Shown: one piece after another, positions 3,361-35,575 of the stretch
How positions within the stretch are numbered: position 1 is the first letter of the stretch
Layout of the letters: each line of letters begins with the position of its first letter
Origin: Flavobacteriales bacterium
GTDB taxonomy: Bacteria; Bacteroidota; Bacteroidia; Flavobacteriales_F; PHOS-HE28
Direction of reading: 5' to 3'
NCBI GenBank assembly: GCA_013360395.1
Contig: JABWBQ010000002.1
Span: 16,703 to 80,702 of the forward strand
DNA: 64,000 bases
Position numbers and translations under genes: made by a program
The notes under the pieces: generated by a model
Seen by the model: the letters and a program-made list of their open reading frames with translations, nothing else
Databases searched by the model: none
Told to the model about the DNA's origin: nothing

Positions 3361-3396
3361 TGAACGGTCGGCGCACCTGCTGACCGGCGGGCGCGG

Positions 3397-3999: not shown

Positions 4000-4120
4000 C
4001 GGGAACTTGGAACCAAGGGAAGGACATGGCTTCGAGGCCACGGCAGCCCCCGACAGAGCAGTCAGCATGACAGAAAACGCCGTAGTGCGGCGATTAAACC
4101 CGATACGGAAGTCCCACCGC

Positions 4121-5365
4121 TCAATGCGGTAGAAAGAAGCCCCAGTATGCGCACCCGGCCAGTGCGGGAAGCAAGAGGGCCAGCGCCGGCAGTAGCGGCC
4201 AGCGCTTGCTCCGATACCGATGCGCTCGAAGGATCAGTACCACCGCCACCACGAGCAGGAAATACGGCAGCGAGGCCAGCGCGGGATGCACATCGCCCAG
4301 GCCGAAGTAGAAGACCTTTTCCAGCGTGAGTAGCACGGCCACCAGCCCCACCAAGGTCACCAGCCCGAGACCGGCCACCACCAACGGCCAACTCGTACGC
4401 ACCGGCAGCCTACGGATCCGACGCAGCCCGTTCATGAGCACCCACACGCCGAGGATGAGGCCCCACAGCACAGCCGCCACGCCACAGGCCATCAACCCTT
4501 GGAACAGCCAGCGTTGGTGGAAGGGCGTGCGGTACGCCTGCAGCGCTTGGTAGGCCTTGTTCGGGGGGAAGAGTGCAGGCAGGTCCAGCGTGTGCGCGCC
4601 CTTTCGCAGCTCCGCGTGCAGATCGAAGGTGATCCGGTGTTCGTAGTCGTGATAGAAAGCCAGGTGCACGAGGCCGCTGTCAGGTTCGAAGAGCGTGCTG
4701 AAGAAGGTGCCGTTCCCCAGGAACTTCCGGCAGGACTTCATGCCTTCCAACACGGACCACGCGCCGTCCACCGTAGGCGCAACACCCGCCTCGAGGAGCG
4801 TACGACCTTGTTGCAGGCGCGGAATGGGAATGGCGTCCATGTCCGTATCGCGTGCCAGCCGCCAGTTGCCCACCGCGAAGTACGGCTCGTCGCCCAGCAG
4901 GATGGTGTCGTTCTGCACCACCGCGTAACGGCCCTGCGCATCTGCCAGGAAGATCATGCTCTGATGCAGGAGGATCCGGTCATGTTTCCGCAGGAAGGCC
5001 ACCGCTTCCGGAACGTCGTGGCACTGCTCCAGCATGCGGTTGGTCAGCGCATTGAACTCAAGCGGCGGCTTGCCCGGCGAAGGCGCTACGTCCATCGGCT
5101 GGACCGTGAGCCCGTCGAACACGAGTCCGACCTCGTTCATGCCCAGTTGGTCCGTCCAGGGCAGGTATGGATGCCCCCGCCAACTGCTGAAGTACACTGC
5201 GCCGAGCCGGCCAGCCTCGCCGGGCACGAAGCGCACGCGGCCTTCCACACACCACGAGTCCTCGTTGTTGCCCACGAAGGTCCGCCCCCCATTGTGGAGG
5301 ATGAAGGCGGTGCAGGCCGGGGCCCACAACGGAAGCAGCATGGCGAGGAAGGCGAACAGGCGCAT
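4121..5365 (-). CDS. choloylglycine hydrolase / linear amide C-N hydrolase family (Ntn hydrolase) with a C-terminal polytopic membrane extension
   Basis: Signal peptide MRLFAFLAMLLPLWAPA followed by CTAFILHNGGRTFVGNNED (N-terminal Cys nucleophile plus Thr, typical of the bile salt hydrolase/penicillin V acylase family). The last ~130 aa form several hydrophobic helices. The start is set at the internal Met (ORF track starts at 5413). Confidence 0.55.
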   Translation of the reverse strand: MRLFAFLAMLLPLWAPACTAFILHNGGRTFVGNNEDSWCVEGRVRFVPGEAGRLGAVYFSSWRGHPYLPWTDQLGMNEVGLVFDGLTVQPMDVAPSPGKPPLEFNALTNRMLEQCHDVPEAVAFLRKHDRILLHQSMIFLADAQGRYAVVQNDTILLGDEPYFAVGNWRLARDTDMDAIPIPRLQQGRTLLEAGVAPTVDGAWSVLEGMKSCRKFLGNGTFFSTLFEPDSGLVHLAFYHDYEHRITFDLHAELRKGAHTLDLPALFPPNKAYQALQAYRTPFHQRWLFQGLMACGVAAVLWGLILGVWVLMNGLRRIRRLPVRTSWPLVVAGLGLVTLVGLVAVLLTLEKVFYFGLGDVHPALASLPYFLLVVAVVLILRAHRYRSKRWPLLPALALLLPALAGCAYWGFFLPH

Positions 5366-5452
5366 ACCGAATGAATGTGATGAAGAGCGAACGTAACGCT
5401 GAACCGACCCCATGCGATCGGGGCTTCTGATCCGGCATGTGATCGCGCCGTG

Positions 5453-6304
5453 CTACTCCTTCACCCACGTTGTGCCGGTCAACCTGCCGGAACCATCGCG
5501 GACGCTGATGCGGTACAGCCCGGCCGGAAGTGCTTCCGTGGATACCAACGGGCGGGGATCGGTGGTGCGCTGTTGAAGCACCACGCGGCAGGTGGCATCG
5601 AGGAGGGTGATGGTGTGCGGGCCGGGCGGGAGGGAAAGCGAGAAGTGGGTGGTGCCGGGGTTGGGGAAGACATGGATGCGTGTGGAGGGATCCTGCTCTC
5701 CCACACCGGTCGATCCGGAGAACGCGAGATCGTCCACCTTGACAAAGCTGCCGGGCACGGGCGCTAGGAAGTTGGTGCTGGAGACGATCTGGATGAAGGC
5801 GGTGTCCGGGATGCCGGTGCCGAGGTAGTCGAGGGGAACGGAGAATGCCTGCCAGGTGGCCAGTGTACCCGTCACTTCCAATGAGCCGAATGCGATGAGG
5901 TCGGTACTGGACGTTACGCTGTTCCACTTGCTGAGCGCCACCTGGACCTGGGCGGTGTCGAAGGGTTGGATGCCGTATTGCCACTGGCCGGTGAGCATGG
6001 CGGGGCGTTGGGCATAGGGGAAGCCGGCATGGCTGGAGGATGTGCCGACCGAGAGCCAACCTTGGATCGCCATGACGCCGCCCGGGGATTGGCGCGTGGT
6101 GATCACGGCATGGAAGCCGCCGGGGTGGCCCGGTGTGCCTTGTTCCACCGTGGGGCCACCGACCGTGGGGATCTCGTTGTAGGTGAGCCAGCCCATCGGG
6201 TCCAGGTATGATCCTTGATCCACCCACGTTTCGAAGCCACCGTTGGGGATCTGAGCGGTGGCCAGCAGGGGGAGCAAGGCCAGGGGGAGGAGGGCTGTGC
6301 GCAT
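5453..6304 (-). CDS. secreted protein with T9SS C-terminal sorting domain
   Basis: Signal peptide MRTALLPLALLPLLATAQ. The C-terminus ...VFPNPGTTHFSLSLP...ITLLDATCRVV...LPAGLYRISV...TTWVKE fits the type-A Por/T9SS CTD. Confidence 0.65.
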   Translation of the reverse strand: MRTALLPLALLPLLATAQIPNGGFETWVDQGSYLDPMGWLTYNEIPTVGGPTVEQGTPGHPGGFHAVITTRQSPGGVMAIQGWLSVGTSSSHAGFPYAQRPAMLTGQWQYGIQPFDTAQVQVALSKWNSVTSSTDLIAFGSLEVTGTLATWQAFSVPLDYLGTGIPDTAFIQIVSSTNFLAPVPGSFVKVDDLAFSGSTGVGEQDPSTRIHVFPNPGTTHFSLSLPPGPHTITLLDATCRVVLQQRTTDPRPLVSTEALPAGLYRISVRDGSGRLTGTTWVKE

Positions 6305-6421
6305 GATGAACGAATGTACGGGCCGGACGCGGATGAGGGGATGCTACCTTGGCCAACTCGATGAACGTAAGCCTCATGTTCCTCGTTCCGCAGTGGTCCG
6401 TCGGTTCCGTAACTTTCGACC

Positions 6422-6649
6422 ATGGCATCAAAGACCAAAACGGCCCGCAATCCTCGTAAGGCAGCCAAAGCGCCGCTCACGAGCAAGACCCTGCGTCGCG
6501 TGTCTACCACAGCCACCAAGTCCGCGAGCCGTTCTGCTTTCGATCACGTGGATGAACTGCTGGTGGTGAAGGAAGGCTGGCTGGTGAAGGTGGACAAGTC
6601 CGGCAAGGTGACCAAGCGGGTGAAGCGGATCAAGCTTCCTGCTGCCTGA
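6422..6649 (+). CDS. small Lys/Arg-rich hypothetical protein (candidate partner/antitoxin of the downstream P-loop kinase)
   Basis: 75 aa ending 7 bp before the zeta-like kinase gene. Basic N-terminus. No recognisable domain. Confidence 0.3.
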   Translation: MASKTKTARNPRKAAKAPLTSKTLRRVSTTATKSASRSAFDHVDELLVVKEGWLVKVDKSGKVTKRVKRIKLPAA

Positions 6650-6655
6650 ACGGCC

Positions 6656-7483
6656 ATGGCGCGATCGCTGCGCTTGCGGATGTTCGCTGGGCCGAACGGG
6701 TCCGGAAAGACGACCATCATCAATGCGGTACGCAAGGCCCGGGTGAACGGCCGTCCCGTGGATCTGGGTGCGTACATCAACGCGGATGACATTGCGAAGG
6801 CCCTCGGCAAGGGCTACGACCTTGCGCCCTTCGAGCTTGAACTTGATGCCGAACGCTTCCTGGCCTTTGCGGCCGCTTCCGGTCTGTTGGACAAGGAGTT
6901 CATGCTGAAGGACCTGGAGCATGGCGTGGTCTGGACCAGCGATCGCGTACGTTCCAAACCTTCACTGCCAAAGGACCGTGTGGCCCAGCTGATCGCGCAG
7001 TTCCTGTACGATGAGCTGCTCACTGCGAAGCGCAAGTTCTCGCTCGAGACGGTGTTCAGTCACCCGAACAAGTTGGAACTGATGAAGCGGGCCAAAGCAA
7101 TGGGCTACAAGGTGTACCTCTACTTCATTTCCACGGAAGATCCTGCGATCAACGTCCAACGGGTGAAGGATATCCGCGTGAAACAGGGTGGCCATGATGT
7201 GCCGAAGGACAAGATCATCAGCCGCTACCATCGGACCATGGCGAATCTGCCGGAAGCGCTATCGATCGCCTACCATGCCTACCTATGGGACAACTCGAAG
7301 CACGGTTCTGCCCAGTTGTTCTGCGAGATGAAGCGGACGGATGACGGTACGCTCTGGGACATCGATCCCACGTTGGTGCCGATCTGGTTCCTGCCCTACT
7401 TGTTGGAGCTCCCGGAGGCGGGAGATCTTTCTCATGTGTATTGGAAGGCGATGGAGCGATTCAGGGATCCTTCAGGGGAGTGA
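6656..7483 (+). CDS. zeta-toxin-like P-loop kinase / AAA family ATPase
   Basis: N-terminal Walker A FAGPNGSGKTTI, size ~275 aa, with acidic residues placed as in zeta/PezT-type UNAG kinases. GC is lower than the flanks. Confidence 0.5.
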   Translation: MARSLRLRMFAGPNGSGKTTIINAVRKARVNGRPVDLGAYINADDIAKALGKGYDLAPFELELDAERFLAFAAASGLLDKEFMLKDLEHGVVWTSDRVRSKPSLPKDRVAQLIAQFLYDELLTAKRKFSLETVFSHPNKLELMKRAKAMGYKVYLYFISTEDPAINVQRVKDIRVKQGGHDVPKDKIISRYHRTMANLPEALSIAYHAYLWDNSKHGSAQLFCEMKRTDDGTLWDIDPTLVPIWFLPYLLELPEAGDLSHVYWKAMERFRDPSGE

Positions 7484-7881
7484 GCGTTCCATACGGGATC
7501 TCCGCCAGGGATGGCAGCGGCAGCCCGGTGAAGGACCGGGCCAACAGCACCGTGGAGCGAGCAGGCCCGACGGTAGGAGGGACCCCGCAGCCCCGGTGAC
7601 GCCGGCCCGGGCCAGGCCACCACAGCGGACAGCCCGCCCGGGCGGCCTGATCAACTCATACTTTCATTCGCTCGCCATTGGATCCCCTACCTTGTACGAG
7701 ACGGAGATCCTGGAAGTGACCGGCATGGGGCCGGTAACGAACTCCTTGCAGGGTCGTGGGGAAGGCGTGGCATGAGCCGTGGAGGACGGGATCGTGAGGC
7801 GGTGCTCACCATAGTGCAACGGATCGGACTTTGCGCGTGGACGAGCGTGATGTCCTGCGAACTTGCTGATCGAACGACGAT

Positions 7882-9405: not shown

Positions 9406-9882
9406 TCCCAATTCGCACTAAGACGTAGGCCGAACTACTCGGTCTCTTTCCGCATGACTTCTCCGTCGTGATCGTTCCGCAGCCCATGCTATGCAACGCC
9501 CCCGCCGTATCGTCCTGTGTAGTGATCCCTTCGTATCTCTAGCCTACGCCTTCGTGCGAAATGGGATAAGCGGATACGGGTTGAACGGGACGGCCGCGTT
9601 CAGGGCGGCAGCCATGTTCCGCGCCGGGTGTGGTGTGGTTGGTGCACCGAAGTGTAAGGGTGGAGCACTGAACCCGCGTGACGGATCGCAGCGGCACCCC
9701 GCACCCCGAGGGCCCAGAGCGTAGCGCAGCGGAGTCGAAGGGTGCGAGGGGGAGGAGTACAGCGAAGAGCCGGACCCCGAGAACCCTGAGCGGAGGCTCT
9801 GCGAAGTCGAAGGGTGCGAGGGGGCACGCCCAAACCCACCTTCCATTTCACGCTTTCGACCGCGCACCGGTATTTTCGCGGC

Positions 9883-12800
9883 ATGTCAACAGCCGTAGCC
9901 CCTCCATACGTCCCCAAGCACAAGATCCGCGTGGTCACCGCCGCCTCGTTGTTCGATGGTCACGATGCCGCCATCAACATCATGCGGCGGATCATCCAGA
10001 GCACCGGCGCCGAGGTGATCCACCTGGGGCACGACCGCAGCGTGGAGGATGTGGTGAACACCGCGATCCAGGAGGATGCCCACGCCATTGCCATGACCAG
10101 CTACCAGGGCGGGCACGTGGAGTACTTCAAGTACATGCACGACCTGCTGAAGGAGAAGGGCGCGGGGCACATCAAGATCTTCGGCGGCGGCGGGGGTACC
10201 ATCCTGCCCAGCGAGATCGAGGAGTTGCACGCCTACGGCATCACGCGGCTGTACCACCCGGACGATGGCCGCGCCATGGGCCTGCAGGGCATGATCAACG
10301 ACATGCTGGAGCAGGCCGACTACGACCTGAGCGACCAGGTGAACGGTGAGGCGAAGAAGCTGACCCCGCAGAACTGGACGGCCATCGCCAAGCTGATCAG
10401 CACGGCGGAGAACCACCCGCAGGTGTTCGAGAAGATCGCCGACGAGGTCCACAAGAAGGCCGCGGCCAGCAAGGCGCCGGTGCTGGGCATCACGGGCACG
10501 GGCGGTGCGGGCAAGAGCAGCATGGTGGATGAGCTGATCCGTCGTTTCGTGCTGGACCAGCCCGGCAAGACCATCGGCGTGATCAGCGTGGACCCCAGCA
10601 AGCGCAAGACCGGCGGCGCGTTGCTGGGCGACCGCATCCGCATGAACAGCATCCGCGGCGAGCGGGTGTACATGCGCAGTCTCGCTACGCGGCAGAGCAA
10701 CCTCGCGCTCAGCAAGCACGTGAAGGAAGCCGTGGCCATCCTGAAGGCAGCGGGCTTCGACCTGGTGGTGCTGGAGACCAGCGGCATCGGCCAGAGCGAC
10801 ACCGAGATCCTGGATCACAGTGATGTTTCGCTCTACATCATGACGCCCGAGTTCGGTGCGGCCACGCAGCTGGAGAAGATCGACATGCTCGACTTCGCCG
10901 ACGTGGTGGCCATCAACAAGTTCGACAAGCGCGGCGCCCTCGATGCCCTGCGCGACGTGAAGAAGCAGTACAAGCGCAACCACCAACTGTGGGACGCCAA
11001 GGACGAGGACCTGCCCGTGGTGGGCACCATCGCCAGCCAGTTCAACGACCCCGGCACCAACGCCCTCTACGCGCGGCTGATGCGCAAGATCAAGGAGAAG
11101 ACCGGCATCGAGCTCGATAGCAGCTTCCACGCGCACGACGAGATGAGCGAGAAGGTGTGGATCATCCCGCCCGCCAAGAGCCGCTATCTGAGCGAGATCA
11201 GCGAGAGCAATCGGAGGTATGATGGCAAGGTGCGCAAGCAGGCGGAGATCGCGGACAAGCTGTACGGGTTGTATTCGGCTGTACTCACCTTCGGTGGCAC
11301 TGACCTTTTGGAGTCGGAAGTCCCGAGGCCCCTGAGTCACGAGTCGGGCGCGAAAGCGACTCACGACTCACGACTTACGGACTCAGTCGACTTCCTCATT
11401 CAAAGGTTCGAAGAACTGAAGAAAGACCTGGATCCCCACCTCTGGTCCATGCTCCAGAACTGGAAGGCCGAGGAGGAACGCTACTCCGGCGAGTTCTACA
11501 CCTACACCGTGCGAGGCAAGGAGATCAAGGTGCCGAACCACAGCGAGAGCCTCAGTCACCTGAAGATCCCGAAAGTCGCGCTGCCGAAGTTCCGCAGCTG
11601 GGGCGACAAGGTGCGTTGGGCCATGCAGGAGAACACGCCCGGCTTCTTCCCCTACACCGCGGGCATCTACCCGTTCAAGCGCACCGGCGAGGACCCCGCG
11701 CGGATGTTCGCCGGCGAGGGCGGCCCCGAGCGCACCAACAAGCGCTTCCACTACGTGAGCCAGGGCATGCCCGCCAAGCGCCTCAGCACCGCCTTCGACA
11801 GCGTGACGCTCTATGGCAACGACCCCGGCCGTCGTCCCGACATCTACGGCAAGGTGGGCAACAGCGGCGTGAGCATCTGCTGCCTCGACGATGCCAAGAA
11901 GCTCTACAGCGGCTTTGACCTCAGCGACCCGAAGACCTCGGTGTCCATGACCATCAACGGTCCCGCGCCCATGCTGCTCGGCTTCTTCATGAACGCGGCG
12001 ATCGACCAGAACTGTGAGAAGTACATACGGGAGCACGGGTTGGAGAAGGAGGTGGAGAAGAAGATCAAGGAGCGCTGGGAGAAGTTGGAGAAGGCGAATG
12101 GCGAATGGTCAATGGCGAATGGAGGGCGCGGCTTTTCCCATTCACCAACTCCCATTCACCATTCACCTCGACCTCGCTACCACGGAGACATACCTGCGGG
12201 GAACGATGGTCTGGGCTTGCTCCTCCTCGGCATCACCGGCGACCAGGTCCTCCCGAAAGACGTCTACGAGAAGATCAAGGCCGAAACGCTGCAACAGGTC
12301 CGCGGCACCGTGCAGGCCGACATCCTGAAGGAAGACCAGGCGCAGAACACCTGCATCTTCAGCACCGAGTTCGCGCTGCGGCTCATGGGCGACGTGCAGC
12401 AGTACTTCATCGACAAGAAAGTCCGCAACTTTTACAGCGTCAGCATCAGCGGCTACCACATCGCGGAGGCCGGCGCCAACCCCATCAGCCAGCTCGCCTT
12501 CACGCTGGCCAACGGCTTCACCTACGTGGAGTACTACCTGAGCCGCGGCATGGACATCAACGCTTTCGCGCCGAACCTCAGCTTCTTCTTCAGCAACGGC
12601 ATGGACCCCGAGTACGCCGTGATGGGCCGCGTGGCGCGCCGCCTCTGGGCCAAGGCGCTCAAGCACCGCTACGGCGCCGACGAGCGCAGCCAGATGCTGA
12701 AGTACCACATCCAGACCAGCGGCCGCAGCCTCCACGCGCAGGAGATCGACTTCAACGACATCCGCACCACGCTCCAGGCGCTGTACGCCATCTACGACAA

Positions 12801-13401
12801 CTGCAATTCGCTCCACACCAACGCCTACGACGAGGCCATCACCACGCCCACCGAGGAAAGCGTGCGCCGCGCCATGGCCATCCAGCTCATCATCAACAAG
12901 GAGCTCGGCTTGGCCAAGAACGAGAACCCGCTGCAGGGGTCATTCATCATTGAAGAGTTGACAGACCTCGTTGAGGAAGCGGTCTTGACGGAGTTCGACC
13001 GCATCACCGAGCGTGGCGGCGTGCTGGGCGCCATGGAGACCATGTACCAGCGCGGCAAGATCCAGGAGGAAAGTCTCTACTACGAAACGCTGAAGCACAC
13101 CGGCGAATACCCGATCATCGGGGTGAACACCTTCCTCAGCAGTAAAGGATCACCGACGATCCTGCCGAAGGAAGTGATCCGTGCCACGGAAGAGGAGAAG
13201 GAGGCGCAGATCGCAACGGTGGAGAACCTCAAGGCCGCCTACGCCCCCGAAGCCGCCAAGGCCCTGAAGGACCTGCAACAAGCGGCGGTCCACAACGAGA
13301 ATATGTTCGAGGTGCTGATGGAGGCGTGTAAGTATTGCTCGCTGGGGCAGCTGACTGCGGCGATGTTTGAGGTGGGGGGGCAGTACAGGAGGAATATGTA
13401 G
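9883..13401 (+). CDS. icmF: fused isobutyryl-CoA mutase (B12-binding domain + MeaB-like G-protein chaperone + mutase catalytic domain)
   Basis: N-terminal [12 protein letters not shown] (DxHxxG B12-binding motif). Central [13 protein letters not shown]-loop, [21 protein letters not shown] and the NKFD motif of MeaB/ArgK GTPases. C-terminal [20 protein letters not shown]... and [10 protein letters not shown]... of methylmalonyl-CoA-mutase-type TIM barrels. Start taken at ATG 9883 (ORF track begins at GTG 9814). Confidence 0.85.
11321..11395 (+). repeat. in-frame nested palindromic insertion inside icmF (codes [28 protein letters not shown])
   Basis: Outer arms cggaagtc/gacttcc. Inner arms gagtcacgagtcg / cgactcacgactc around gggcgcgaaagc. 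It lies in the linker after the GTPase domain and is absent from the expected mutase consensus. Confidence 0.5.
12093..12168 (+). repeat. in-frame hairpin insertion with tandem 9-mers inside icmF (codes ...[25 protein letters not shown]...)
   Basis: Left arm ggcgaatggcgaatggtcaatggcgaatggag. Right arm ctcccattcaccaactcccattcaccattcacc is its imperfect reverse complement, with loop ggcgcggcttttc. Confidence 0.55.
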
Positions 13402-13430
13402 CAGTAGCGTGGGAGGTTAACTTTGAGGAA

Positions 13431-13736
13431 ATGCCCAAGCTGTACGAGTACTTCGGTCTCATCTTTCTGTTCTACAGCGACGATCATGACCCCATGCATC
13501 TTCATGTGCGGCATGGCGACCGCGAGGGTATCGTCATGCTCATCATCGTGGAGGGCAATCTGGTTGAACTGCGTTGGCGGGCTAAACGCGGGGCGGCCAT
13601 GCTGAATGAAAAGGAACAGCGCGAGGCCGAGGCGTTCGTACGGGCCATGAAGAGCGACATCGTCGCCAAGTGGACCGCCTTCTACGTCGAACACAAGCGC
13701 ATCAAGCCTGAGCGCATAACCCGCCGGATCAAATGA
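13431..13736 (+). CDS. DUF4160 domain protein
   Basis: MPKLYEYFGLIFLFYSDDHDPMHLHVRHGD... matches the DUF4160 N-terminal signature (MP..F.G..I.FY.DH.PPH H). Begins 30 bp after the icmF stop. Confidence 0.75.
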   Translation: MPKLYEYFGLIFLFYSDDHDPMHLHVRHGDREGIVMLIIVEGNLVELRWRAKRGAAMLNEKEQREAEAFVRAMKSDIVAKWTAFYVEHKRIKPERITRRIK

Positions 13737-14050
13737 AGATCGCTGAGGACGTCCGTATCAAGAAGGCCACCTATATGGGTGACTACATCATTCGATTCGC
13801 CTTCACCGATGGCCATGTGAGCGAGATAGACTTCCATCCCTTCCTCAGCGCGGCCGGGCAAAATCCCATGAACAGCCAGTATTTGGATGTCCTGCGCTTC
13901 CGGGAGTTCAAGCTGCACCGCAATGTGGATGTGTACTGGGATGATTGGGAGATGTGCTTCCGGTTCGAGACGCTCTACGCGGGGAAGCTGCCGAAGATGC
14001 CAGCACCGCAACGGCGATCGGTTCGACGAAAGGTGACGGCCAACGCGTGA
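13733..14050 (+). CDS. DUF2442 domain protein
   Basis: ATGA overlap with DUF4160. ...YIIRFAFTDGHVSEIDFHPFL... is typical of DUF2442, the usual partner of DUF4160. Confidence 0.7.
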   Translation: MKIAEDVRIKKATYMGDYIIRFAFTDGHVSEIDFHPFLSAAGQNPMNSQYLDVLRFREFKLHRNVDVYWDDWEMCFRFETLYAGKLPKMPAPQRRSVRRKVTANA

Positions 14051-14058
14051 AGAACGCC

Positions 14059-14355
14059 ATGGTCATCGGCGTGAACACCTTCCTCCGCAGCAAAGGCTCA
14101 CCGACGATCCTGTCCGCCGTACGGCGGATGATCCGTGCCACGGAAGAAGAGAAAGAAGCGCAGATCGCGACGGTGGAGAACCTGAAAGCCGCCTACGCCC
14201 CCGAAGCCGCCAAAGCCCTGAAAGACCTGCAACAGGCGGCGGTGCGGAACGAGAATATGTCCGCGGTGCTGATGGAGGCGTGCAAGTACTGCTCGCTGGG
14301 TCAGCTTACGGCGGCGATGTTCGAAGTGGGGGGGCAGTATAGGAGGAACATGTGA
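14059..14355 (+). pseudogene. duplicated, ~10% diverged 3' fragment of icmF (last ~98 codons incl. stop; first reiteration)
   Basis: ...[17 protein letters not shown]...[73 protein letters not shown] against icmF residues ...[17 protein letters not shown]...[10 protein letters not shown]. Confidence 0.75.
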
Positions 14356-14374
14356 TGATGAGGATGCTGAGCGG

Positions 14375-14412
14375 GATTTGAGGTGGGGGGCAGTACAGAA
14401 GGAATATGTGAC
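14375..14412 (+). repeat. short reiteration of the icmF 3' terminus (gatttgaggtggggggcagtacagaaggaatatgtga)
   Basis: Matches icmF 13365-13401 (gtttgaggtgggggggcagtacaggaggaatatgtag). Third copy of the terminus. Confidence 0.7.
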
Positions 14413-14443
14413 TGGGTACCCGGCTCTGTCTTAACTTCGTGTC

Positions 14444-14659
14444 ATGGCCTCGGCGCACAACTACATCCAACTGTCGTCCCTTCCGGAGGATGTTCGCCAG
14501 CAGGTGCTCGACTTCATCGAGTTCCTGATGCGGCGCCGTCAGGGCAACGAGCCGAAGGAGAAGCGCAAGACACCGGTGCCCGGCCTGGCCAAAGGCATGG
14601 TCACCGTGCCAGCAGACTTCGATGCACCCTTGGATGACTTCAAGGAGTACATGGAATGA
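14444..14659 (+). CDS. DUF2281-like antitoxin (VapB-type partner of the PIN toxin)
   Basis: 71 aa. ...LPEDVRQQVLDFIEFLMRR... and the C-terminal DFDAPLDDFKEYME are characteristic of DUF2281 antitoxins. ATGA overlap with the PIN gene. Confidence 0.6.
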   Translation: MASAHNYIQLSSLPEDVRQQVLDFIEFLMRRRQGNEPKEKRKTPVPGLAKGMVTVPADFDAPLDDFKEYME

Positions 14660-15042
14660 AGCTGTTGCTTGACACGCACGTCCTGCTTTGGTTCCAGGCG
14701 GGCGACCAAGCATTGCCGAAAGCGGCCGAGCAGGCCATCCGATCCGAGGCCAATGAAGCGTTCGTCAGCATGGTCTCCTTCTGGGAGATCGGACTGAAGC
14801 ATAGCATTGGCAAGCTGCCCTTACGTAAGCCGCTGGATGTATTCCTCAGCACGATCACTGAGGCAGCATTCCAGATACTCCCGCTGGACATCCCACACAT
14901 TGTTGCTTCTTCGGCACTGCCGCTGCACCACCGAGACCCGTTCGACCGGATGCTGATCGGGCAGGCGAAGCATGAAGGCATGCACCTGATCACCGTGGAT
15001 GCGCAGTTCCGGGCATACGATGTGCCACTGATCGGTTTGTGA
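14656..15042 (+). CDS. vapC: PIN domain toxin (VapC family)
   Basis: 128 aa. N-terminal LLDTHVLLW and the conserved acidic residue positions of the PIN fold. Translationally coupled to the upstream small gene. Confidence 0.75.
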   Translation: MKLLLDTHVLLWFQAGDQALPKAAEQAIRSEANEAFVSMVSFWEIGLKHSIGKLPLRKPLDVFLSTITEAAFQILPLDIPHIVASSALPLHHRDPFDRMLIGQAKHEGMHLITVDAQFRAYDVPLIGL

Positions 15043-15118
15043 TGACCATCATGCTGAGCGAAGCGAAGTCCCGCCGTAGCGACCGTGGCCGAGGAACGAG
15101 GCGTACGGACGCTGGAGC

Positions 15119-15158
15119 GGGATTCGAGGTGGGGGGGCAGTACAGAAGGAACATGTAG
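15119..15158 (+). repeat. short reiteration of the icmF 3' terminus (gggattcgaggtgggggggcagtacagaaggaacatgtag)
   Basis: Fourth copy of the icmF terminus. Lies between the PIN gene and the Fic gene. Confidence 0.7.
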
Positions 15159-15186
15159 TGCTGTTCAGCATCACCAAGATGAACAC

Positions 15187-15969
15187 ATGCCTGTGGCCCT
15201 GCTAGTCAACACATACCTGCCAGCATATCGCGCACAGCTGAACCTGCCGCTCGCTGAGCTTATCGCCACGCTCGCCGAGGAGCGCAACGGTGGCGGCGCT
15301 GACCTGCTCAACCTGTATGAGAGCGCCGTGGCCAGCAGCCAGATCGAGGGCAGCAAGGTCACCCTCGACCTTTTCAAACGCACCATGGAGGCCGCTGGGA
15401 GCGGGCCCAGACCGCGCGATGTGCAGGAAGTGGCCGATCTGGTGAGCGCCTACCGCTTCGCTCAAGTGAACCCGCTCAACATCGCCAACCTGCTCGAAGC
15501 GCACCGCATCGCATCAGCATTGCTCGTCAACGCCAACGATCGTGGCGCCTGGCGCACAAAGGGCGTTAAGGTGGGCAATGCCATCACCACCGTGTACATG
15601 GCCCCGCATCAGAGCCTGGTGCCATCGCTCATGGACCAGCTGATGGAGGAGACCGGTACGCTCTTGGATCAGAAGCTCACAATCGAAGAGGCGTTCTATT
15701 TCGCCGCGCTCCTGCACCTCGTCTTCGTCAAGGTGCATCCTTTCATCGACGGCAATGGACGCACCGGCCGTCTATTGGAGAAGTGGTTCCTCGAGAGCCA
15801 CATCGGCCCGATCGCATGGAGCATCCGCAGCGAACGCTACCTGATCCGCAACCTCGACGATTACTACGATACACTTGCCGCTGTCGGACCGGATTGGGGT
15901 AGCTTGCAATGGGACCGCTGTCTGCCCTTCATGCTGCTGTTGCCGCAGGCGCTTACCATGAAACGATAG
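15187..15969 (+). CDS. Fic family protein (Fic/Doc AMPylase-type)
   Basis: Canonical Fic motif HPFIDGNGRTGR. Start taken at ATG 15187; the ORF-track extension to 15085 runs through the repeat copy. Confidence 0.8.
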   Translation: MPVALLVNTYLPAYRAQLNLPLAELIATLAEERNGGGADLLNLYESAVASSQIEGSKVTLDLFKRTMEAAGSGPRPRDVQEVADLVSAYRFAQVNPLNIANLLEAHRIASALLVNANDRGAWRTKGVKVGNAITTVYMAPHQSLVPSLMDQLMEETGTLLDQKLTIEEAFYFAALLHLVFVKVHPFIDGNGRTGRLLEKWFLESHIGPIAWSIRSERYLIRNLDDYYDTLAAVGPDWGSLQWDRCLPFMLLLPQALTMKR

Positions 15970-16060
15970 CATTGCGAGGAAGTGATCCGTGCCACCGAGG
16001 AAGAGAAGGAGCCGCAGATCGCGACGGTGGAGAACCTGAAATCCGCCTACGCCCCCGAGG
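15966..16060 (+). repeat. partial internal copy of the icmF tail (corresponds to icmF ~13170-13262: ...[25 protein letters not shown]...)
   Basis: gaagtgatccgtgccaccgaggaagagaaggagccgcagatcgcgacggtggagaacctgaaatccgcctacgcccccgag matches the icmF coding sequence and then diverges. Confidence 0.6.
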
Positions 16061-16129
16061 GGCCAAGGAACGCTTCACCTCCGGGAACGAGTGGCCGGAC
16101 TTTGGGTCGCTTACACACCGCCGTGCGGA

Positions 16130-17173
16130 TCAAGGGAAACAGAATCCGCCGGGGATGATGCCCGCTAGGAAGCTGCCGAGCTCCGTTCCGCCGGGGCTGT
16201 ACCGAAGGACCACACCGTGTTGCACGTAATCGACCGCATCGGAGACGTAGATGGTACCATTGTCCGGATCCACGCCGAGGCCGTAGAAGTTGCGGTTGTC
16301 GGCGGGGATGAAGGCATTGGTCGGCAGGACGCTGTCGTGGATGGCCATGCGGTACACCCCGCCGTCGAGGAAGTACAGCACATCGTGTGCGTCGTTGATG
16401 GTGAGCCGCCACGGTGATGCGGAAGCGGGAAAGGCGAAGCTGGCCTCCACCGCGAGCGTGGCGGGATCGAAGCGATGCAGTGCCGGGGCGATGCCGCCGC
16501 CCATGGACCCGCCGCAGAGGACCCAGAGCCTGCCGTTGGCATCCTGCCGGATGCTGCTGCCCCCGATGGAGACGGGGATGCTGTCGATGAGCTGGTCCGT
16601 CGCGGTGTCGATCACCAGCACCTGGTCGCCTTCCGGTGCGGTGACGAAGGCTTTTCCGTAGGCGAGCGCCAACTCCTCCGTCCGCCCGGGCACGGGGATG
16701 CTGCCGGTGATGGTGTTGGTGACCAGGTCCACCACGGCGATGGCATCCGCGAACAGGTCGGTCACGTAGGCCTTGCCATTGCTCACGGGCAGCAGGTAGC
16801 GCGGCGAACTGAACCCGGTGATGGTCGCGGTGGCGACGAAGGTCTGCGGGTCCACCACCACCACCTTGCCGGAGTTGTTCACGACCAGGTAGCCGCGGTC
16901 GTTGAACAGCGTCATGCTCTGGCACACATCCCCCAGCGCGCTGCCGTTCGCGGGCGCGTAGAGGTCCTCCACGGTGGTGCCGTTCGTCCTGTCGTGGTAG
17001 CTCACCGTCGCGTTGCCCCATCCGAAGTTGCCCTCGTTGGTGATGTACACCCCGTCAGAGCCGACCACGACCGGCGTGTCGTCCGGTGGTCCCGGTCGGT
17101 CCTTGCGGCAGGACGACGATCCCAGGGCGAGCAATGCGAGGCAGAGGAGCAGGAGCTTAGTACGCATGGGCAA
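16130..17173 (-). CDS. YncE-like beta-propeller lipoprotein (DUF5074-like), B12-uptake-locus associated
   Basis: Lipoprotein signal ...LALGSSSC. Repeated YVTD/IYVSD-type propeller motifs. Last gene of the riboswitch-controlled operon. Confidence 0.55.
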   Translation of the reverse strand: MPMRTKLLLLCLALLALGSSSCRKDRPGPPDDTPVVVGSDGVYITNEGNFGWGNATVSYHDRTNGTTVEDLYAPANGSALGDVCQSMTLFNDRGYLVVNNSGKVVVVDPQTFVATATITGFSSPRYLLPVSNGKAYVTDLFADAIAVVDLVTNTITGSIPVPGRTEELALAYGKAFVTAPEGDQVLVIDTATDQLIDSIPVSIGGSSIRQDANGRLWVLCGGSMGGGIAPALHRFDPATLAVEASFAFPASASPWRLTINDAHDVLYFLDGGVYRMAIHDSVLPTNAFIPADNRNFYGLGVDPDNGTIYVSDAVDYVQHGVVLRYSPGGTELGSFLAGIIPGGFCFP

Positions 17174-24199: not shown

Positions 24200-25489
24200 A
24201 TGACCGGCTCCCCGCTCGGCAACGTGGCGCGCACCACATCCCACAGGGTGGTGATCCCCTTCTACGTGTACGGCGCGGCCGCACTGCTGGTCGCCACGGT
24301 GATGCTCCTTGTCTCCCACCGGTCGTTCACGGGCCACTACTTCCAGCCGCACCTCCTGGCCATCACGCACACCATGGCGCTGGGCTGGGCCACCATGATC
24401 ATCCTGGGCGCCGGCCATCAGCTGTTCCCGGTGCTGGTGGAGACCGACCTGTACAGCGAGGGGCTGGCGCGTGCCTCGTTCCTTCTGGCGGCCGTGGGCA
24501 TACCGCTGCTCGTGTACGGTTTCCACAGCTTCGACCTGGGGCTGCCGGCCCGCCTGGGCGGAACGCTGGTGCTCGGGGCGGTGCTGGCCTTCATGGCGAA
24601 CATCGGCATGGGGCTGGTGCGCAGCAAGAGGGAGAACGTCCACGCCGTCTTCGTGTTCACCTCCACGGCCTGGCTGCTGCTCACCGCGGCGCTCGGCCTG
24701 GCGCTGCTGTTCAACTTCACCCGGTCGCTGCTGCCGCACGATTCGGTGCATTACCTCGGCCTGCACGCGCACCTGGGCATCGTGGGGTGGTTCCTGCTGC
24801 TGGTGCTGGGGGTCGGCTCCCGGTTGGTGCCCATGTTCCTCATCTCCAAATACACCGCGCCGCGGCTGCTCTGGGCGGTGTTCATCCTGGTGAACACGGC
24901 GCTGCTGGGCCACACGGTGTTCTTTCTCGTGGACATGCCCGCGTGGTCGGACTACGTGCCCGTGACCATGGTGGCCGCGGCATTGCTGCTCTTCGCCCAC
25001 TACTGCCGCCAGGCCTACAGGCAGCGCATCCGCCGCAAGGTGGACGCCCAGATGCGCGTGACCCTGCTGGCGGTGGCCCTGATGCTGCTGCCCACGGCGG
25101 TGCTGCTGGTCCTCCTCACCTCCATCGCGCTCGGGGGCGGCGCGCAGGTCCGGGTGGCGCTGCTCTACGGTTTCACCATCTTCTTCGGCTGGCTCACGGC
25201 CATCATCCTGGGGATGACCTTCAAGACCCTGCCCTTCATCGTCTGGAACAAGGTGTACCGGCCGCGTGCCACCCTGGGCAGGATGCCCGGGCCCAAGGAC
25301 CTGTTCAGCGACCGCCTCTTCCTGGCGACGGTGGCGGCCTACCTGGCGGGGTTCACCCTCTTCGGCTGGGGCATCGCCCAGGCATCGGTCGTATTGTTGA
25401 AGATCGGTGCCGTGGCCCTGCTGGCCACGGCCTTGCTGTACAACTGGAGCATCGGCAGGATGGTGTTCATCAAGCAACTCGGACCATGA
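24200..25489 (+). CDS. polytopic membrane protein, possibly NnrS-like/heme-copper-type
   Basis: 429 aa with ~12 TM helices and conserved His inside helices (HTMALGW, GAGHQLFP, HLGIVGWF, LGHTVFF). Sits in a DUF2249/RIC/Rrf2 context. The family assignment is inferred only. Confidence 0.35.
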   Translation: MTGSPLGNVARTTSHRVVIPFYVYGAAALLVATVMLLVSHRSFTGHYFQPHLLAITHTMALGWATMIILGAGHQLFPVLVETDLYSEGLARASFLLAAVGIPLLVYGFHSFDLGLPARLGGTLVLGAVLAFMANIGMGLVRSKRENVHAVFVFTSTAWLLLTAALGLALLFNFTRSLLPHDSVHYLGLHAHLGIVGWFLLLVLGVGSRLVPMFLISKYTAPRLLWAVFILVNTALLGHTVFFLVDMPAWSDYVPVTMVAAALLLFAHYCRQAYRQRIRRKVDAQMRVTLLAVALMLLPTAVLLVLLTSIALGGGAQVRVALLYGFTIFFGWLTAIILGMTFKTLPFIVWNKVYRPRATLGRMPGPKDLFSDRLFLATVAAYLAGFTLFGWGIAQASVVLLKIGAVALLATALLYNWSIGRMVFIKQLGP

Positions 25490-25806
25490 GCGCACCCGGA
25501 CAGGACGAATTGATCGACAAGGCACTGGATGCCCTGCGGACCGTGGACGACCCCGAGGTGGGCCTCAACGTGGTGGACCTCGGGCTGATCTACGAGATCG
25601 AGATCGGTCCGGACGCGCGGGAAGTGGACTGCCTGATGACCTTCACCACGGAGTTCTGCCCCATGGGAGCATCGATCCAGGCGGGCGTGACCGAAGCGCT
25701 GAAGATGACCTTCCCCGAGGCGGCGGTGCAGGTGCGCATCACCTTCGACCCGCCCTGGAGCCAGTCCATGATCTCCGAGGCGGGCCGGATGTTCCTTGGC
25801 GGATAG
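25486..25806 (+). CDS. DUF59 / Fe-S cluster assembly (SufT/MIP18-like) protein
   Basis: ~106 aa. ...DPEVGLNVVDLGLIYEIEI... with the conserved Cys (FTTEFCPMG) of the DUF59 family. ATGA overlap with the upstream gene. Confidence 0.65.
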   Translation: MSAPGQDELIDKALDALRTVDDPEVGLNVVDLGLIYEIEIGPDAREVDCLMTFTTEFCPMGASIQAGVTEALKMTFPEAAVQVRITFDPPWSQSMISEAGRMFLGG

Positions 25807-26242
25807 GACCATGCTGAGCCTGACGTGCAAGGCCGCCATCAAGGCCGTGACCTTCCTGGGGTCGCGGCTCGCCTCCGGCGAACGCTCGAGCCTGAAGGAG
25901 GTGGCAGCGTTCATCGACGAGAACGAGCACACCGTGGGCAAGCTGCTGCAACGGCTGGTGAAGGCCGGGGCCATCAAGAGCGCCAAGGGACCCAACGGCG
26001 GCTTCTACATGACGCCCCGCCAGGTGGAACAGCGGGTGATGCGCATCGTGGAGGCGATCGACGGCAAGGCGGTCTTCCAGGAGTGCGGCCTGGGCTTGCG
26101 CCGGTGCAGCGATGCGCGTCCGTGCCCCTTCCATGAACGCTACAAGCCCATCCGCGACCAGTTCCGGCAGCTGTGCGAGCACCAGCGTGTGAAGGACCTG
26201 TATGAAGAGGTCAACAGCGGGTCGGCGTACCTGGTGGGTTGA
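25796..26242 (+). CDS. Rrf2 family transcriptional regulator (NsrR/IscR-like, 3-Cys cluster-binding)
   Basis: N-terminal wHTH (...AIKAVTFLGSR...SLKEVAAFIDENEHTVGKLLQRLVKAGAIKSAKGPNGGF). Cys triad C-x7-C-x5-C (CGLGLRRCSDARPC). Confidence 0.75.
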   Translation: MADRTMLSLTCKAAIKAVTFLGSRLASGERSSLKEVAAFIDENEHTVGKLLQRLVKAGAIKSAKGPNGGFYMTPRQVEQRVMRIVEAIDGKAVFQECGLGLRRCSDARPCPFHERYKPIRDQFRQLCEHQRVKDLYEEVNSGSAYLVG

Positions 26243-26408
26243 AGGCGGCGCGGCACCGCATGTGGCCGGGTGCGAGGTGCGACGGCCCGGATCGCGCGGT
26301 GGCCGTCACCCTGGCCGCCTCCCTGACGACGGAGACCCTGGAGCCAGGGAGTGATCCGGCCAGAACCGGGAATGCTCCCGTATGTTTGAGGAAAGCAAAT
26401 GACCGACC

Positions 26409-27482
26409 ATGCCCCGTTTGCACACCACGCTGTCCACCGCGCTGTTGACCGCCCTTTTGCCCGCCGCGACGTGCGCACAGTTCGATTGCGGTACCGGCGT
26501 CTTCTACGGCCTGGGCTCGGATGGCAACGTCCACACGCTCATCATGTCCGGCGGCACCATCGCCCTGGGCCCGATCGTGAACAGTCAGGGCACCGGGCTC
26601 TTCGGCCTCGCCATGGCCGACTTCGGAGACGGGCTCACCCTTTATTCCGCAGCGAATCCCGGGGAAGTGAAGAAGCTCAATGGCGGGACATGGCAGACGG
26701 TGCAGACCGACACGCTTTACCGCATCAACGCCGGTGGGCGCGGCGATCACGTGTACTATCAGGTGGGCCGGCTGTTCAATCCCAACCCGTTGTTCCCCAA
26801 CCGCATCGAGCATTTCGACGGGACCGCCACCACCACCGTCTGGGACGACCAGACGGTTTACCAACCGGTGGCCGACGTGGCCGTGGACGGCGATGGCAAC
26901 GCCTACTTCTTCACCGGCCCCACCGCCTTCGATGTCACGGCCCTGAACGTGATGTCGCCCGCCGGCGTGGTACTGAGCACGATCCCCGTCGCCTTCGACG
27001 GGTTCAACGCCTTCGGCAGCTTCCTCATGGACGACAAGCTCTACGTCGGCTTCGGTGCGTCCAGCAACAACTGGCCCAACCAGCTCCTGCCCATCACCAT
27101 CAGCGGGAACAGCGCCACCCTCGGCACGCCCATCGACCTTCCCGTACCGGTGATCGGCATCGGACCCAATGGCCCGGTCTATCTCAGTTTCACGGACCTG
27201 GAGAGCTGTGCGGCCGAGACCATCGACCTCGCGACCGGTCTTCAGGCCATGGCATCACCGATGCCGGTACAAGTGATCACGGAGAACGGCGCGATACTCG
27301 TTGCGAGCGATCAGCGGCCCACCTGGATCCTAGTGACCGATGCCCTGGGCCGACGTATCCATGCGGAAGCACATCCCGACAACCGCACCCGGATCCCCAC
27401 GGCCGGCTGGCTGGATGGCCTCTACATCGTGGTGACGGAAGTGGCGGGGCAACGTTTCGTGGAGCGGATGGTGGTGCGGTGA
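26409..27482 (+). CDS. secreted hypothetical protein with T9SS-CTD-like C-terminus
   Basis: Signal peptide MPRLHTTLSTALLTALLPAATCAQ. C-terminal ...ILVTDALGRRIH....GLYIVVTEVAGQRFVERMVVR. Confidence 0.5.
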   Translation: MPRLHTTLSTALLTALLPAATCAQFDCGTGVFYGLGSDGNVHTLIMSGGTIALGPIVNSQGTGLFGLAMADFGDGLTLYSAANPGEVKKLNGGTWQTVQTDTLYRINAGGRGDHVYYQVGRLFNPNPLFPNRIEHFDGTATTTVWDDQTVYQPVADVAVDGDGNAYFFTGPTAFDVTALNVMSPAGVVLSTIPVAFDGFNAFGSFLMDDKLYVGFGASSNNWPNQLLPITISGNSATLGTPIDLPVPVIGIGPNGPVYLSFTDLESCAAETIDLATGLQAMASPMPVQVITENGAILVASDQRPTWILVTDALGRRIHAEAHPDNRTRIPTAGWLDGLYIVVTEVAGQRFVERMVVR

Positions 27483-27529
27483 GGGCGGGTCTCGCTCACA
27501 TGGATGGCCCACGGATCCGATCGCAGGGA

Positions 27530-28042: not shown

Positions 28043-28044
28043 GC

Positions 28045-29463: not shown

Positions 29464-29501
29464 GGAACGCACTTCTGAAAATAGCCCGTTCCGCACATGG
29501 G

Positions 29502-35569: not shown

Positions 35570-35575
35570 TCGCCC

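Follow-up and report, generated by a model that had tools for sequence, protein, structure and literature searches.

A predicted class II Fic gene in an array of small modules bounded by copies of the icmF 3' end

Organization of the icmF locus

The window analyzed here, a stretch of 64,000 nt from a Flavobacteriales bacterium (GCA_013360395.1, contig JABWBQ010000002.1, positions 16,703 to 80,702 of the forward strand), carries icmF followed by three small co-oriented modules, namely a DUF4160/DUF2442 gene pair, a VapBC pair and, as the third, a Fic gene (Table 1). The icmF product matches NF045497, the profile of the fused isobutyryl-CoA mutase/MeaB GTPase, with 1765 bits against a cut-off of 1500, which excludes a reading of this icmF as the type VI secretion gene. 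The modules are delimited throughout by copies of the final 36-290 nt of icmF; the insert lies between direct repeats of the icmF 3' end, and icmF itself stays intact. The cassette genes have a GC3 below that of the host genes.

Table 1. Features of the array behind icmF, with positions in the window
Feature	Position	Strand	Evidence or remark
icmF, fused isobutyryl-CoA mutase	9814-13401	+	NF045497; last ~290 nt (13115-13401) repeated downstream
Cassette A, DUF4160 (DhiT-like) and DUF2442 gene pair	13431-14050	+	Profile matches
Long icmF tail copy 1, ~290 nt, ~87-90% identity	14063-14355	+	Public annotation has a 98-aa ORF
Short tail copy 2, 1-nt deletion, without hairpin	14365-14411	+	Repeat search, BLAST
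Cassette B, DUF2281 antitoxin-like gene and PIN (VapC) toxin gene	14444-15042	+	Pfam, gene calls
35-codon ORF (MLSEAKSRR...), hairpin and IcmF C-terminal remnant	15051-15158	+	Open in window and L001, closed in L057
Imperfect hairpin, just upstream of and into short tail copy 3	15069-15122		Inverted-repeat search
Non-coding "N-terminal extension" of the mechanical ORF	15085-15186	+	No homologue counterpart, L001 stop and frame shift, GC3
Short tail copy 3, last ~36-47 nt of icmF, ends in TAG	15112-15158	+	Repeat search, BLAST
Fic coding sequence, 260 aa	15187-15969	+	PF02661 score, identical protein P0001, homologue collinearity, AF2, Foldseek
Inhibitory-helix motif S50-S-Q-I-E54-G55	15334-15351	+	Fits (S/T)xxxE(G/N)
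Catalytic loop H184-P-F-I-D-G-N-G-R-T-G-R195 (HPFIDGNGRTGR)	15736-15771	+	Direct sequence reading
Tail copy 4, truncated internal icmF-tail fragment, right edge of cassette and array	15977-16068	+	Repeat search, BLAST
Convergent flanking gene (DUF5074), closing the array	16130-17167	-	Gene calls

The original prediction placed a repeat of the icmF terminus ahead of the Fic gene, and this repeat is recovered as tail copy 3 by two methods, over its full length at 83% identity to 13355-13401 in the repeat search and over 15123-15158 at 92% in BLAST. Its last 12 codons hold three differences, all synonymous, and a 26-nt core of the tail (allowing at most three mismatches) occurs three times in the window as against 0.00 expected from shuffles. 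The same prediction had an internal piece of the icmF tail closing the cassette, as is indeed the case: tail copy 4 matches icmF 13169-13261 at 88-90% identity, and the final ~140 nt of the tail are missing. Its equivalent in the sister locus L001 is a complete copy of ~270 nt (1582-1853), and by comparison tail copy 4 reads as a shortened version of such a copy. The hairpin at tail copy 3 is the largest inverted repeat of the array, with 18-nt arms that are 78% complementary, and it is kept in L001, where three double-sided changes leave none of its 20 pairs broken.

A scan of the array for sigma-70-type promoters, whose consensus does not suit Bacteroidota, gave no matches, and a terminator scan returned two terminator-like sites, which is the chance level. 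From these scans and the co-orientation of the modules, we tentatively infer that the cassettes are transcribed from the icmF promoter. Rfam had no match in 13000-16400. The leader motif GCTGAGCGANGCGAAGTCCCGCC was found nowhere but at the Fic locus, ruling it out as a dispersed repeat. The tail copies end in AGGAGGAATATG, which was also considered as a conserved Shine-Dalgarno sequence or cargo start and rejected, as its Arg codons differ from genome to genome (CGC CGC, CGG CGG, AGA AGG) and it stands anywhere from 1 to 111 nt ahead of the cargo starts.

The Fic protein and its catalytic and inhibitory motifs

Judged by its sequence, the third module holds an ordinary, intact Fic (AMP-transferase) gene, and AMP-transfer activity is predicted for its product. 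A Fic/Doc enzyme had been proposed at this position, and Pfam, the AF2 model and Foldseek agree in putting the protein among solved Fic proteins. The Pfam profile PF02661 (Fic) matches residues 97-202 with 55.6 bits against a cut-off of 24, and the predicted structure (pLDDT 95.4, pTM 0.93) contains the all-helical Fic core fold, with all of the best 45 Foldseek matches in the PDB being Fic proteins; 4rgl, 7cb8, FICD and SoFic were matched at E values of 3e-10 to 1e-7, and phmmer against the PDB returned the same set. An identical 260-aa protein (P0001, 100%) is on record at NCBI, and homologues of 257-265 aa are collinear with it from end to end at 98-100% query coverage. Almost all of the matches listed in a metagenome scan with the Fic alignment are distant Fic proteins of at most 39% identity.

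The catalytic loop is intact and fits HxFx(D/E)GNGRxxR. A degenerate Fic motif had been raised as a possibility, and an alignment of 63 homologues shows H184, P185, D188, G189, N190, G191, R192 and R195 to be invariant and F186 to be nearly so. The Doc-type loop HxFx(D/N)(A/G)NKR is absent from the protein, in which the loop reads GNGR rather than NKR, and the Doc profile TIGR01550 reaches 17.7 bits against a cut-off of 38.65, ruling out an identity as Doc, the death-on-curing kinase.

Any inhibitory element had been expected to be intramolecular, and a search for an (S/T)xxxE(G/N) helix located S50-S-Q-I-E54-G55, in which S50, E54 and G55 are invariant across the 63 homologues. The motif is placed by the AF2 model at the end of a predicted helix (residues 38-53), ~130 residues N-terminal of the active-site loop in the same polypeptide, and phmmer against the PDB aligns E54 with the inhibitory Glu234 of FICD. 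Because the motif is conserved and aligned in this way, we assign the protein to the class II Fic proteins, with a putative intramolecular N-terminal inhibitory helix. The Fic_N profile PF13784 scores below its threshold (22.2 bits as against 26.7).

Comparison with known Fic systems

The Fic gene is a further example of an already known Fic type. Dde_2494 (4rgl), an uncharacterized bacterial Fic, ranks first in both the sequence and the structure search (phmmer E 3.8e-14; Foldseek E 3.4e-10, TM 0.75 normalized to the query). Its SLAIEN inhibitory motif aligns with that of the protein described here, but it is longer (325-343 aa), carries extra C-terminal parts and is 24% identical. Human FICD/HYPE and Fic-1 of C. 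elegans have the Fic core fold in common with the protein described here, and their inhibitory motif aligns residue for residue (SSQIEGS here, TVAIEGN with Glu234 there). Unlike the protein described here, FICD (~23% identity) resides in the ER membrane of eukaryotes, carries TPR domains and is bifunctional, both AMPylating and de-AMPylating BiP. The class I pairs VbhT/VbhA and FicT/FicA share the catalytic loop but carry the helix on a separate small antitoxin, whereas here it lies within the enzyme. In the work of Engel et al. of 2012 and Harms et al. of 2015, class I Fic proteins reportedly have the same catalytic loop and are inhibited by the same sort of Glu-bearing helix.

SoFic of Shewanella oneidensis (SO_4266; single-gene anti-phage system PDLC03963; PMC12249575) is also a class II Fic with the inhibitory helix and a canonical loop in one chain, and the Foldseek and phmmer matches include its structures 3eqx, 3zcn and 3zec. 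In contrast to SoFic (~361-372 aa, ~24% identity), the protein described here has only 260 aa and is missing the entire C-terminal domain, which has been reported to be necessary for EcSofic toxicity (PMC12249575), and no AS1-like downstream gene is conserved. The PADLOC SoFic model (PDLC03963) is the closest model of the defense library (E 1.7e-29, profile positions 58-256 of 361).

Start codon, antitoxin and function of the Fic gene

The mechanical ORF of 294 aa opens at GTG 15085 and closes at TAG 15969. Its first 34 codons cross the hairpin and the 47-nt tail copy 3, which lies in a frame other than that of this ORF. The original prediction set the start at ATG 15187 and described the annotated N-terminal extension as a repeat copy. 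The start and the repeat both hold, while the extension proved to be a feature of the mechanical ORF list rather than of public annotation, since the NCBI record of P0001 begins at ATG 15187. It is hardly credible that the long ORF is the real gene and the 34 repeat-derived residues a genuine N-terminal extension: an open frame does extend from the GTG at 15085, but that codon sits within an arm of the hairpin, the extension is found in no homologue, and 28 homologues start at most two codons from the position of ATG 15187. The in-frame upstream stretch of L001, moreover, has a stop 21 codons ahead of the ATG and a 1-nt indel that alters its frame relative to the window, and GC3 is 0.50 in the 34-codon extension as against 0.78 in the Fic gene. 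Taken together, the homologue N-termini, the L001 stop and indel, GC3 and the public record support ATG 15187 as the true start, with GTG 15193 as a possible alternative; a start at GTG 15085 is an artefact of a reading frame that crosses the hairpin and the tail copy. Only 28 nt separate the end of the tail copy from ATG 15187, so no ORF can fit between them, in keeping with the earlier claim that no separate antitoxin ORF lies between the repeat and the Fic gene. No adjacent class I antitoxin gene with the inhibitory motif was found beside Fic, and in eight other contexts of the family no small gene is conserved next to the Fic family members, the gaps to neighboring genes often being 2-45 nt. 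There are small ORFs on both sides of Fic, the 35-codon ORF upstream and a 58-codon ORF at 15982-16158 downstream, each with an open counterpart in L001, and Fic could then be the toxin of a two-gene module in which one of the two encodes an unrecognized antitoxin. The analogy would be to EcSofic, for which a 47-aa AS1 is encoded downstream, as a class II Fic can still require a small downstream antitoxin (PMC12249575). We consider such a module very unlikely, as both small ORFs are made up of icmF-tail remnants and the middle of the upstream one is a DNA hairpin with compensatory changes. A conserved upstream ORF had been named as evidence that would count against the original prediction; the 35-codon ORF is open in the window and L001, yet the equivalent frame is closed in L057, it has no (S/T)xxxE(G/N) motif and it has no counterpart beside other Fic family members. 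For these reasons it is probably not a gene, and we do not count it as an antitoxin.

With Fic read as a single-gene module, analogy to SoFic, FICD and further Fic proteins suggests a mode of action: Glu54 would hinder productive ATP binding and keep the enzyme normally latent, and once this block is relieved the enzyme would AMPylate a cellular target and bring about growth arrest, working as a toxin-like or abortive-infection defense module. Such a role is supported by its relatives at 62-78% identity, which mostly adjoin restriction-modification genes (these flank the homologues in L002, L166, L167, L169 and L177), and by SoFic, described in PMC12249575 as an abortive-infection toxin of the class II Fic type, being the closest defense-library model. 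As the C-terminal domain is absent and the SoFic equivalog NF046030 scores 46.9 bits against a cut-off of 550 (profile positions 60-256 of 361 covered), SoFic-like behavior is proposed by analogy only. Fic enzymes are chemically versatile, and a housekeeping regulator, or a transferase of UMP, CMP, phosphocholine or phosphate, would be compatible with the second-best structural match, 7cb8, a Fic solved with CDP, and with a protein that is without the SoFic C-terminal domain. This is nonetheless unlikely given a canonical AMPylation-type loop that is unlike the Doc or AnkX variants, TA modules as neighbors, relatives in restriction-modification-type operons, and a GC3 below that of the host core genes. 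We regard it as probable that the Fic coding sequence encodes a complete class II Fic that acts as a latent toxin-like or defense module, within an icmF-tail-bounded array formed by recombination. These data define a short (~260 aa) class II Fic subfamily that is without the C-terminal domain and mostly adjoins restriction-modification genes, which suggests a defense role distinct from that of full-length SoFic. They also provide a corrected gene model and a testable prediction, with E54G releasing toxicity and H184A abolishing it.

Related arrays and the history of the tail copies

Similar arrays are present in four of 80 Bacteroidota icmF loci. The same Fic cassette lies directly behind icmF in L001, and analogous cassettes follow icmF in L006, L057, L069 and L079, those of L057 and L069 being TA pairs. 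Between the window and L001 the Fic cassette is 86.7% and icmF 82.2% identical at the nucleotide level; since the cassette has diverged about as much as icmF, its presence in both may reflect vertical inheritance rather than recent mobility. No polymorphism of the array was seen among contigs with an identical DUF5074 flank protein, the A-B-C array being present in 22 of the 22 that were read.

In the window, L001 and L057, the long tail copies differ from the resident tails with pN/pS of 0.05-0.12 at pS of 0.24-0.67, the value for long tail copy 1 of the window being 0.05; a decayed copy in L069 has a pN/pS of 0.23. Because these differences are almost only synonymous, the long copies are former working gene ends from diverged genomes, and duplication of the tail in situ was rejected on the same pattern.

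Origin of the array

As the boundaries are former working ends from diverged relatives, we propose that the modules arrived by recombination within the icmF 3' end with incoming DNA that bore its own icmF end, with RecA, or a recombinase acting in trans, as a possible agent of insertion. No integrase or recombinase was found by Pfam among ~37 scanned ORFs of the window, nor an integrase among the gene calls for the 7 kb to each side of the array or around L003 and L170, and an XerD tblastn across all array loci matched only L037, a control with no tail copies. The cassettes hold the DUF4160/DUF2442, VapBC and Fic genes only and carry no integrase of their own. A non-exhaustive search by gene calls, Pfam and XerD tblastn found no intI beside the array. 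Literature searches for isobutyryl-CoA mutase as an integration site, or as linked to TA cassettes, returned nothing relevant.

Two kinds of known element resemble this arrangement. Integrative elements that duplicate gene 3' ends, such as e14 in icd and the islands in tRNA, tmRNA and trmE genes, also leave direct repeats and an intact anchor gene, with ends that are former working copies, but here no integrase was found in or beside the array and the units are TA/defense units of 0.6-1 kb, not multi-gene islands. The cassettes could be the addictive leftovers of such integrase-bearing islands, which would have integrated serially and site-specifically at the icmF 3' end before deletions eroded them. 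The hallmark of this kind of integration is a duplicated gene 3' end that once was a working copy, TA genes resist loss, and a large defense island (CBASS and others) lies just downstream in the sister strain L170. We view this account as possible but doubtful, in that no integrase or fragment of one is found in six array-bearing loci and all cargo with a family assignment points in the same direction as icmF. The cargo of at least six independent cassettes, moreover, begins 1-111 nt past the tail stop and ends 4-35 nt before the next copy, a tight packing that makes random deletion unlikely. Integron cassette arrays, the other comparison, likewise consist of small co-oriented units with no promoter found, stacked behind a fixed anchor, but the boundaries here are copies of coding sequence of variable length (27-290 nt) and not attC hairpins. 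As for attC-type hairpins, in both the window and L001 the tail copy preceding Fic has a conserved hairpin ahead of it; hairpins occur also in L057 and at three L006 copies, and are absent from the other boundaries. Tentatively, an integron-like, integrase-less platform may be anchored at the icmF 3' end in several Bacteroidota lineages; compact TA/defense cassettes without promoters of their own, the solo Fic included, would be inserted there serially through imported icmF ends, by RecA or a recombinase in trans and possibly guided by a hairpin plus short copy, and expressed by read-through from icmF.

Across lineages of 34% to 65% GC, the 3' end of a housekeeping gene has repeatedly captured tiny toxin or defense cassettes with no integrase visible. 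Were a dedicated mechanism behind this, it would constitute a second route to cassette arrays besides integrons and would give Bacteroidota a compact natural landing pad. Cassette A, together with an 88-nt tail, is collinear with positions 2818-3503 of L006.

Organization of the array behind icmF

The gene upstream of the Fic cassette (window 9814-13401) encodes the fused isobutyryl-CoA mutase/MeaB GTPase IcmF (NF045497, 1765 bits; cut-off 1500), which is distinct from the type VI secretion IcmF. The 3' part of icmF is repeated four times downstream of the gene, with three modules interspersed between these tail copies, and a 26-nt core of the tail occurs three times when up to 3 mismatches are allowed, against 0.00 expected from shuffles. 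This array bounded by icmF-tail copies is a more unusual feature than the Fic gene itself, and no prior description of such an arrangement was found in the literature searched.

Components of the array downstream of icmF
Feature	Window position	Strand	Description
Module A	13431-14050		DUF4160 (DhiT-like) + DUF2442 pair
Tail copy 1	14063-14355		~290 nt, 87-90% identity
Tail copy 2	14365-14411		short; 1-nt deletion
Module B	14444-15042		DUF2281/PIN VapBC pair
Tail copy 3	15112-15158		short; TAG at end
Module C	15187-15969	+	Fic gene
Tail copy 4	15977-16068		internal fragment, match to 13169-13261
DUF5074 gene	16130-17167	-	convergent, closes array

Within tail copy 1, 10 nt are replaced at 14113-14128 by a perfect 16-nt palindrome, TCCGCCGTACGGCGGA; as the net change is +6 nt, the pseudo-tail is still in frame.

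The Fic cassette had been noted to end in an internal fragment of the icmF tail, which is borne out, and the sister locus L001, with the same Fic cassette behind icmF, accounts for its form. There, Fic is followed by a complete tail copy of ~270 nt (1582-1853, with a 20-nt insertion) ending ATGTAG; the window homologue of this copy breaks off after '...GCCTACGCCCCCGA' and is followed by the end of the DUF5074 gene. Because the L001 counterpart is complete, copy 4 is a truncated full copy rather than an originally internal one. Past the right-hand tail copy, the flanks of the window and of the sister strain are unrelated: the icmF array of the latter is directly followed by an island rich in defence genes (L170:2055-10705), which has no part in common with the window flank and contains a type II CBASS (E2, CD-NTase, SAVED), HNH, DnaJ, HTH/M78 with DUF3368, MTES_1575, NOV_C, and ORF6N. 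The remnant of copy 4 (15967-16158) lies in the Fic frame with only TAG 15967-15969 between them, which is probably a coincidence, as it is not so in L001.

An imperfect hairpin lies directly upstream of short tail copies in the window (15069-15122), L001 (645-700), and L057 (8620-8647), an icmF locus with a tail array; hairpins also occur within three tail copies of a further such locus, L006 (near 4925, 6195, and 7460), and are absent from the remaining tail copies. The window and L001 hairpins differ by three double-sided changes that break none of 20 pairs.

Gene model and class of the Fic protein

The mechanical ORF list extends the Fic gene to a 294-codon frame (GTG 15085 to TAG 15969) whose translation includes HPFIDGNGRTGR, but five lines of evidence converge on ATG 15187, the start favored in the original prediction. 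Homologues begin no more than two codons away from this ATG, with no residue aligned to the 34 upstream codons (n = 28). In L001, where Fic is 88% identical, a stop interrupts the in-frame upstream stretch 21 codons ahead of the ATG, and a 1-nt indel between repeat and ATG changes the reading frame compared with the window. The extension has a GC3 of 0.50, compared to 0.78 in the Fic gene and ~0.89 in host genes, and GTG 15085 is located inside an arm of the array's strongest inverted repeat (15069-15086 paired with 15105-15122). Finally, a public 260-aa "Fic family protein" (P0001; Flavobacteriales MAG, JAJTXL010000005.1, GCA_021463405.1) is identical, so that public annotation already has the gene boundaries right. 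Since the majority of homologues begin two codons further in, GTG 15193 is a possible alternative start. Homologues of 257-265 aa cover 98-100% of the query, which indicates that the gene is full length.

The predicted Fic identity of the enzyme holds, with a Pfam Fic match of 55.6 bits, an AlphaFold model from 63 homologues (pLDDT 95.4) whose top Foldseek hits are exclusively Fic proteins (4rgl, 7cb8, FICD, SoFic, BT_2513, CdFic), and catalytic-loop residues H184, P185, D188, G189, N190, G191, R192, and R195 invariant in an alignment of 63 sequences. An inhibitory (S/T)xxxE(G/N) helix, looked for within the protein, was found as S50-S-Q-I-E54-G55, where predicted helix 38-53 ends. By our estimate this pattern alone matches by chance in ~1/5 proteins; the assignment is credible because S50, E54, and G55 are invariant in the same alignment and the segment aligns to known inhibitory helices, pairing by phmmer with FICD "TVAIEGN", where the inhibitory Glu234 lies. 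Thus, the protein appears to be a class II Fic with a built-in inhibitor, in line with the original prediction. Though uncharacterised, it is conventional for its known class and, being already delimited publicly, of modest interest on its own. One homologue, P0030 (GCA_016721685.1, L168:5001-5867), reads 'SSRSRGARSLFRCSRPP' across the inhibitory motif, after which the family sequence resumes; this points to a double frameshift or an error in the assembly, or else the inhibitory Glu has been lost naturally.

A minor alternative is a two-gene system in which Fic is paired with a small separate antitoxin. Its precedent is EcSofic, a class II Fic that is nevertheless reported to have a 47-aa antitoxin, AS1, encoded downstream (2025; PMC12249575). 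The claim that no antitoxin ORF lies between repeat and Fic stands, only 28 nt separating tail copy 3 from ATG 15187. Further upstream begins a 35-codon ORF (15051-15158) that spans hairpin and repeat and is open at equal length in L001. Several points argue against this ORF as an antitoxin: the IcmF C-terminus supplies its final 11 residues, the hairpin makes up its middle part, it lacks an inhibitory motif, and the analogous frame is closed in L057. The downstream 58-codon frame (15982-16158) is a remnant of tail copy 4. Given the position of AS1, the genes adjacent to Fic were checked for eight further family members; a conserved small gene is absent from both sides of Fic in these contexts, and gaps to the neighbour are often only 2-45 nt, which argues against the two-gene arrangement.

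The closest curated models to the protein are SoFic-type (PADLOC SoFic, E 1.7e-29), with the NCBIfam SoFic equivalog scoring 46.9 bits, far under its 550-bit cut-off. Both matches are confined to profile positions ~58-256 of 361; the C-terminal domain of SoFic, reported to be required for EcSofic toxicity (PMC12249575), is therefore missing from the window protein. Only the Fic copies 88-100% identical (window, L001) are located behind icmF. Most examined copies 62-78% identical adjoin restriction-modification genes, as helicase-Fic-methylase operons (L166, L177; Eco57I/N6 methylase type), beside HsdM and HsdS (L002), or near HsdR or HsdS pieces (L167, L169); L168 and L174/L175 had no R-M family in their flanks. 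PrrC/EcoprrI exemplifies toxins that reside within type I R-M loci. By analogy with SoFic and with such toxins, the window protein is most likely a latent toxin or abortive-infection enzyme.

Arrays at other loci and their possible origin

Extra copies of the locus's own icmF tail were present in 4 of 80 Bacteroidota icmF loci surveyed (one genome per species). The closest relative, L006 (IcmF 89% identical), carries about ten own-tail copies (27-137 nt each) across 5.7 kb (1830-7523), reaching the contig end. An ORF begins at or just past almost every copy, most of this cargo is without a Pfam family, and a DUF4160/DUF2442 cassette is collinear with module A of the window, yet third in order. 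Cargo elsewhere includes a PBECR2-like/DUF2283 pair (L057, 34% GC), a Phd/PIN pair (L069), and DUF6000 with a PD-(D/E)XK protein (L079). Wherever cargo could be assigned to a family, it runs in the same direction as icmF; the spacing is 1-111 nt from the preceding tail stop to the cargo and 4-35 nt from the cargo to the next copy.

Nearly all differences between long tail copies and the resident tail are synonymous (pN/pS 0.05-0.12, pS 0.24-0.67; window, L001, L057), which rules out neutrally decaying local duplications; a decayed L069 copy has a pN/pS of 0.23. This pattern indicates that each long copy was, for the greater part of the time in which it diverged, the functional end of icmF in another genome. 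Incoming DNA thus probably brought its own icmF end, and recombination inside the resident 3' end inserted the cassette, keeping the icmF gene and leaving the displaced or imported tail copy behind. Such insertion could possibly occur by a RecA-dependent Campbell or double-crossover event, or through a trans-acting recombinase that recognizes the conserved final ~30 nt of icmF; no recombinase was found near the array in six array-bearing loci. It is also possible that larger integrase-bearing islands have decayed down to addictive genes, although the tight packing and uniform orientation of the cargo argue against this. No array polymorphism was seen: the A-B-C array is the same in 22 of 22 population contigs that have the identical flank protein. 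Nucleotide identity between the window and L001 is 86.7% for the Fic cassette and 82.2% for icmF; having diverged about as much as icmF, the shared cassette may be an old one passed down vertically.

Similarity between genomes is 73-76% over the final 189 nt of icmF, compared to 84-89% over the 300 nt just upstream (window 13169-13401 against the L001 and L006 tails), and tail copies from a single genome resemble each other more closely (81-89%). This pattern is consistent with repeated replacement of the gene end.

Three features elsewhere in the window are unrelated to each other: a C-5 cytosine DNA methylase (46079-47356, minus strand), a weak Zeta_toxin-like ORF (6656-7483, plus strand), and, at 25300-36500, a gene block with GC3 (0.75-0.84) below the values of most other called genes in the window and with a PDZ-hydrolase, DUF885, PD40 repeat genes, and a beta-lactamase-family gene among its members.
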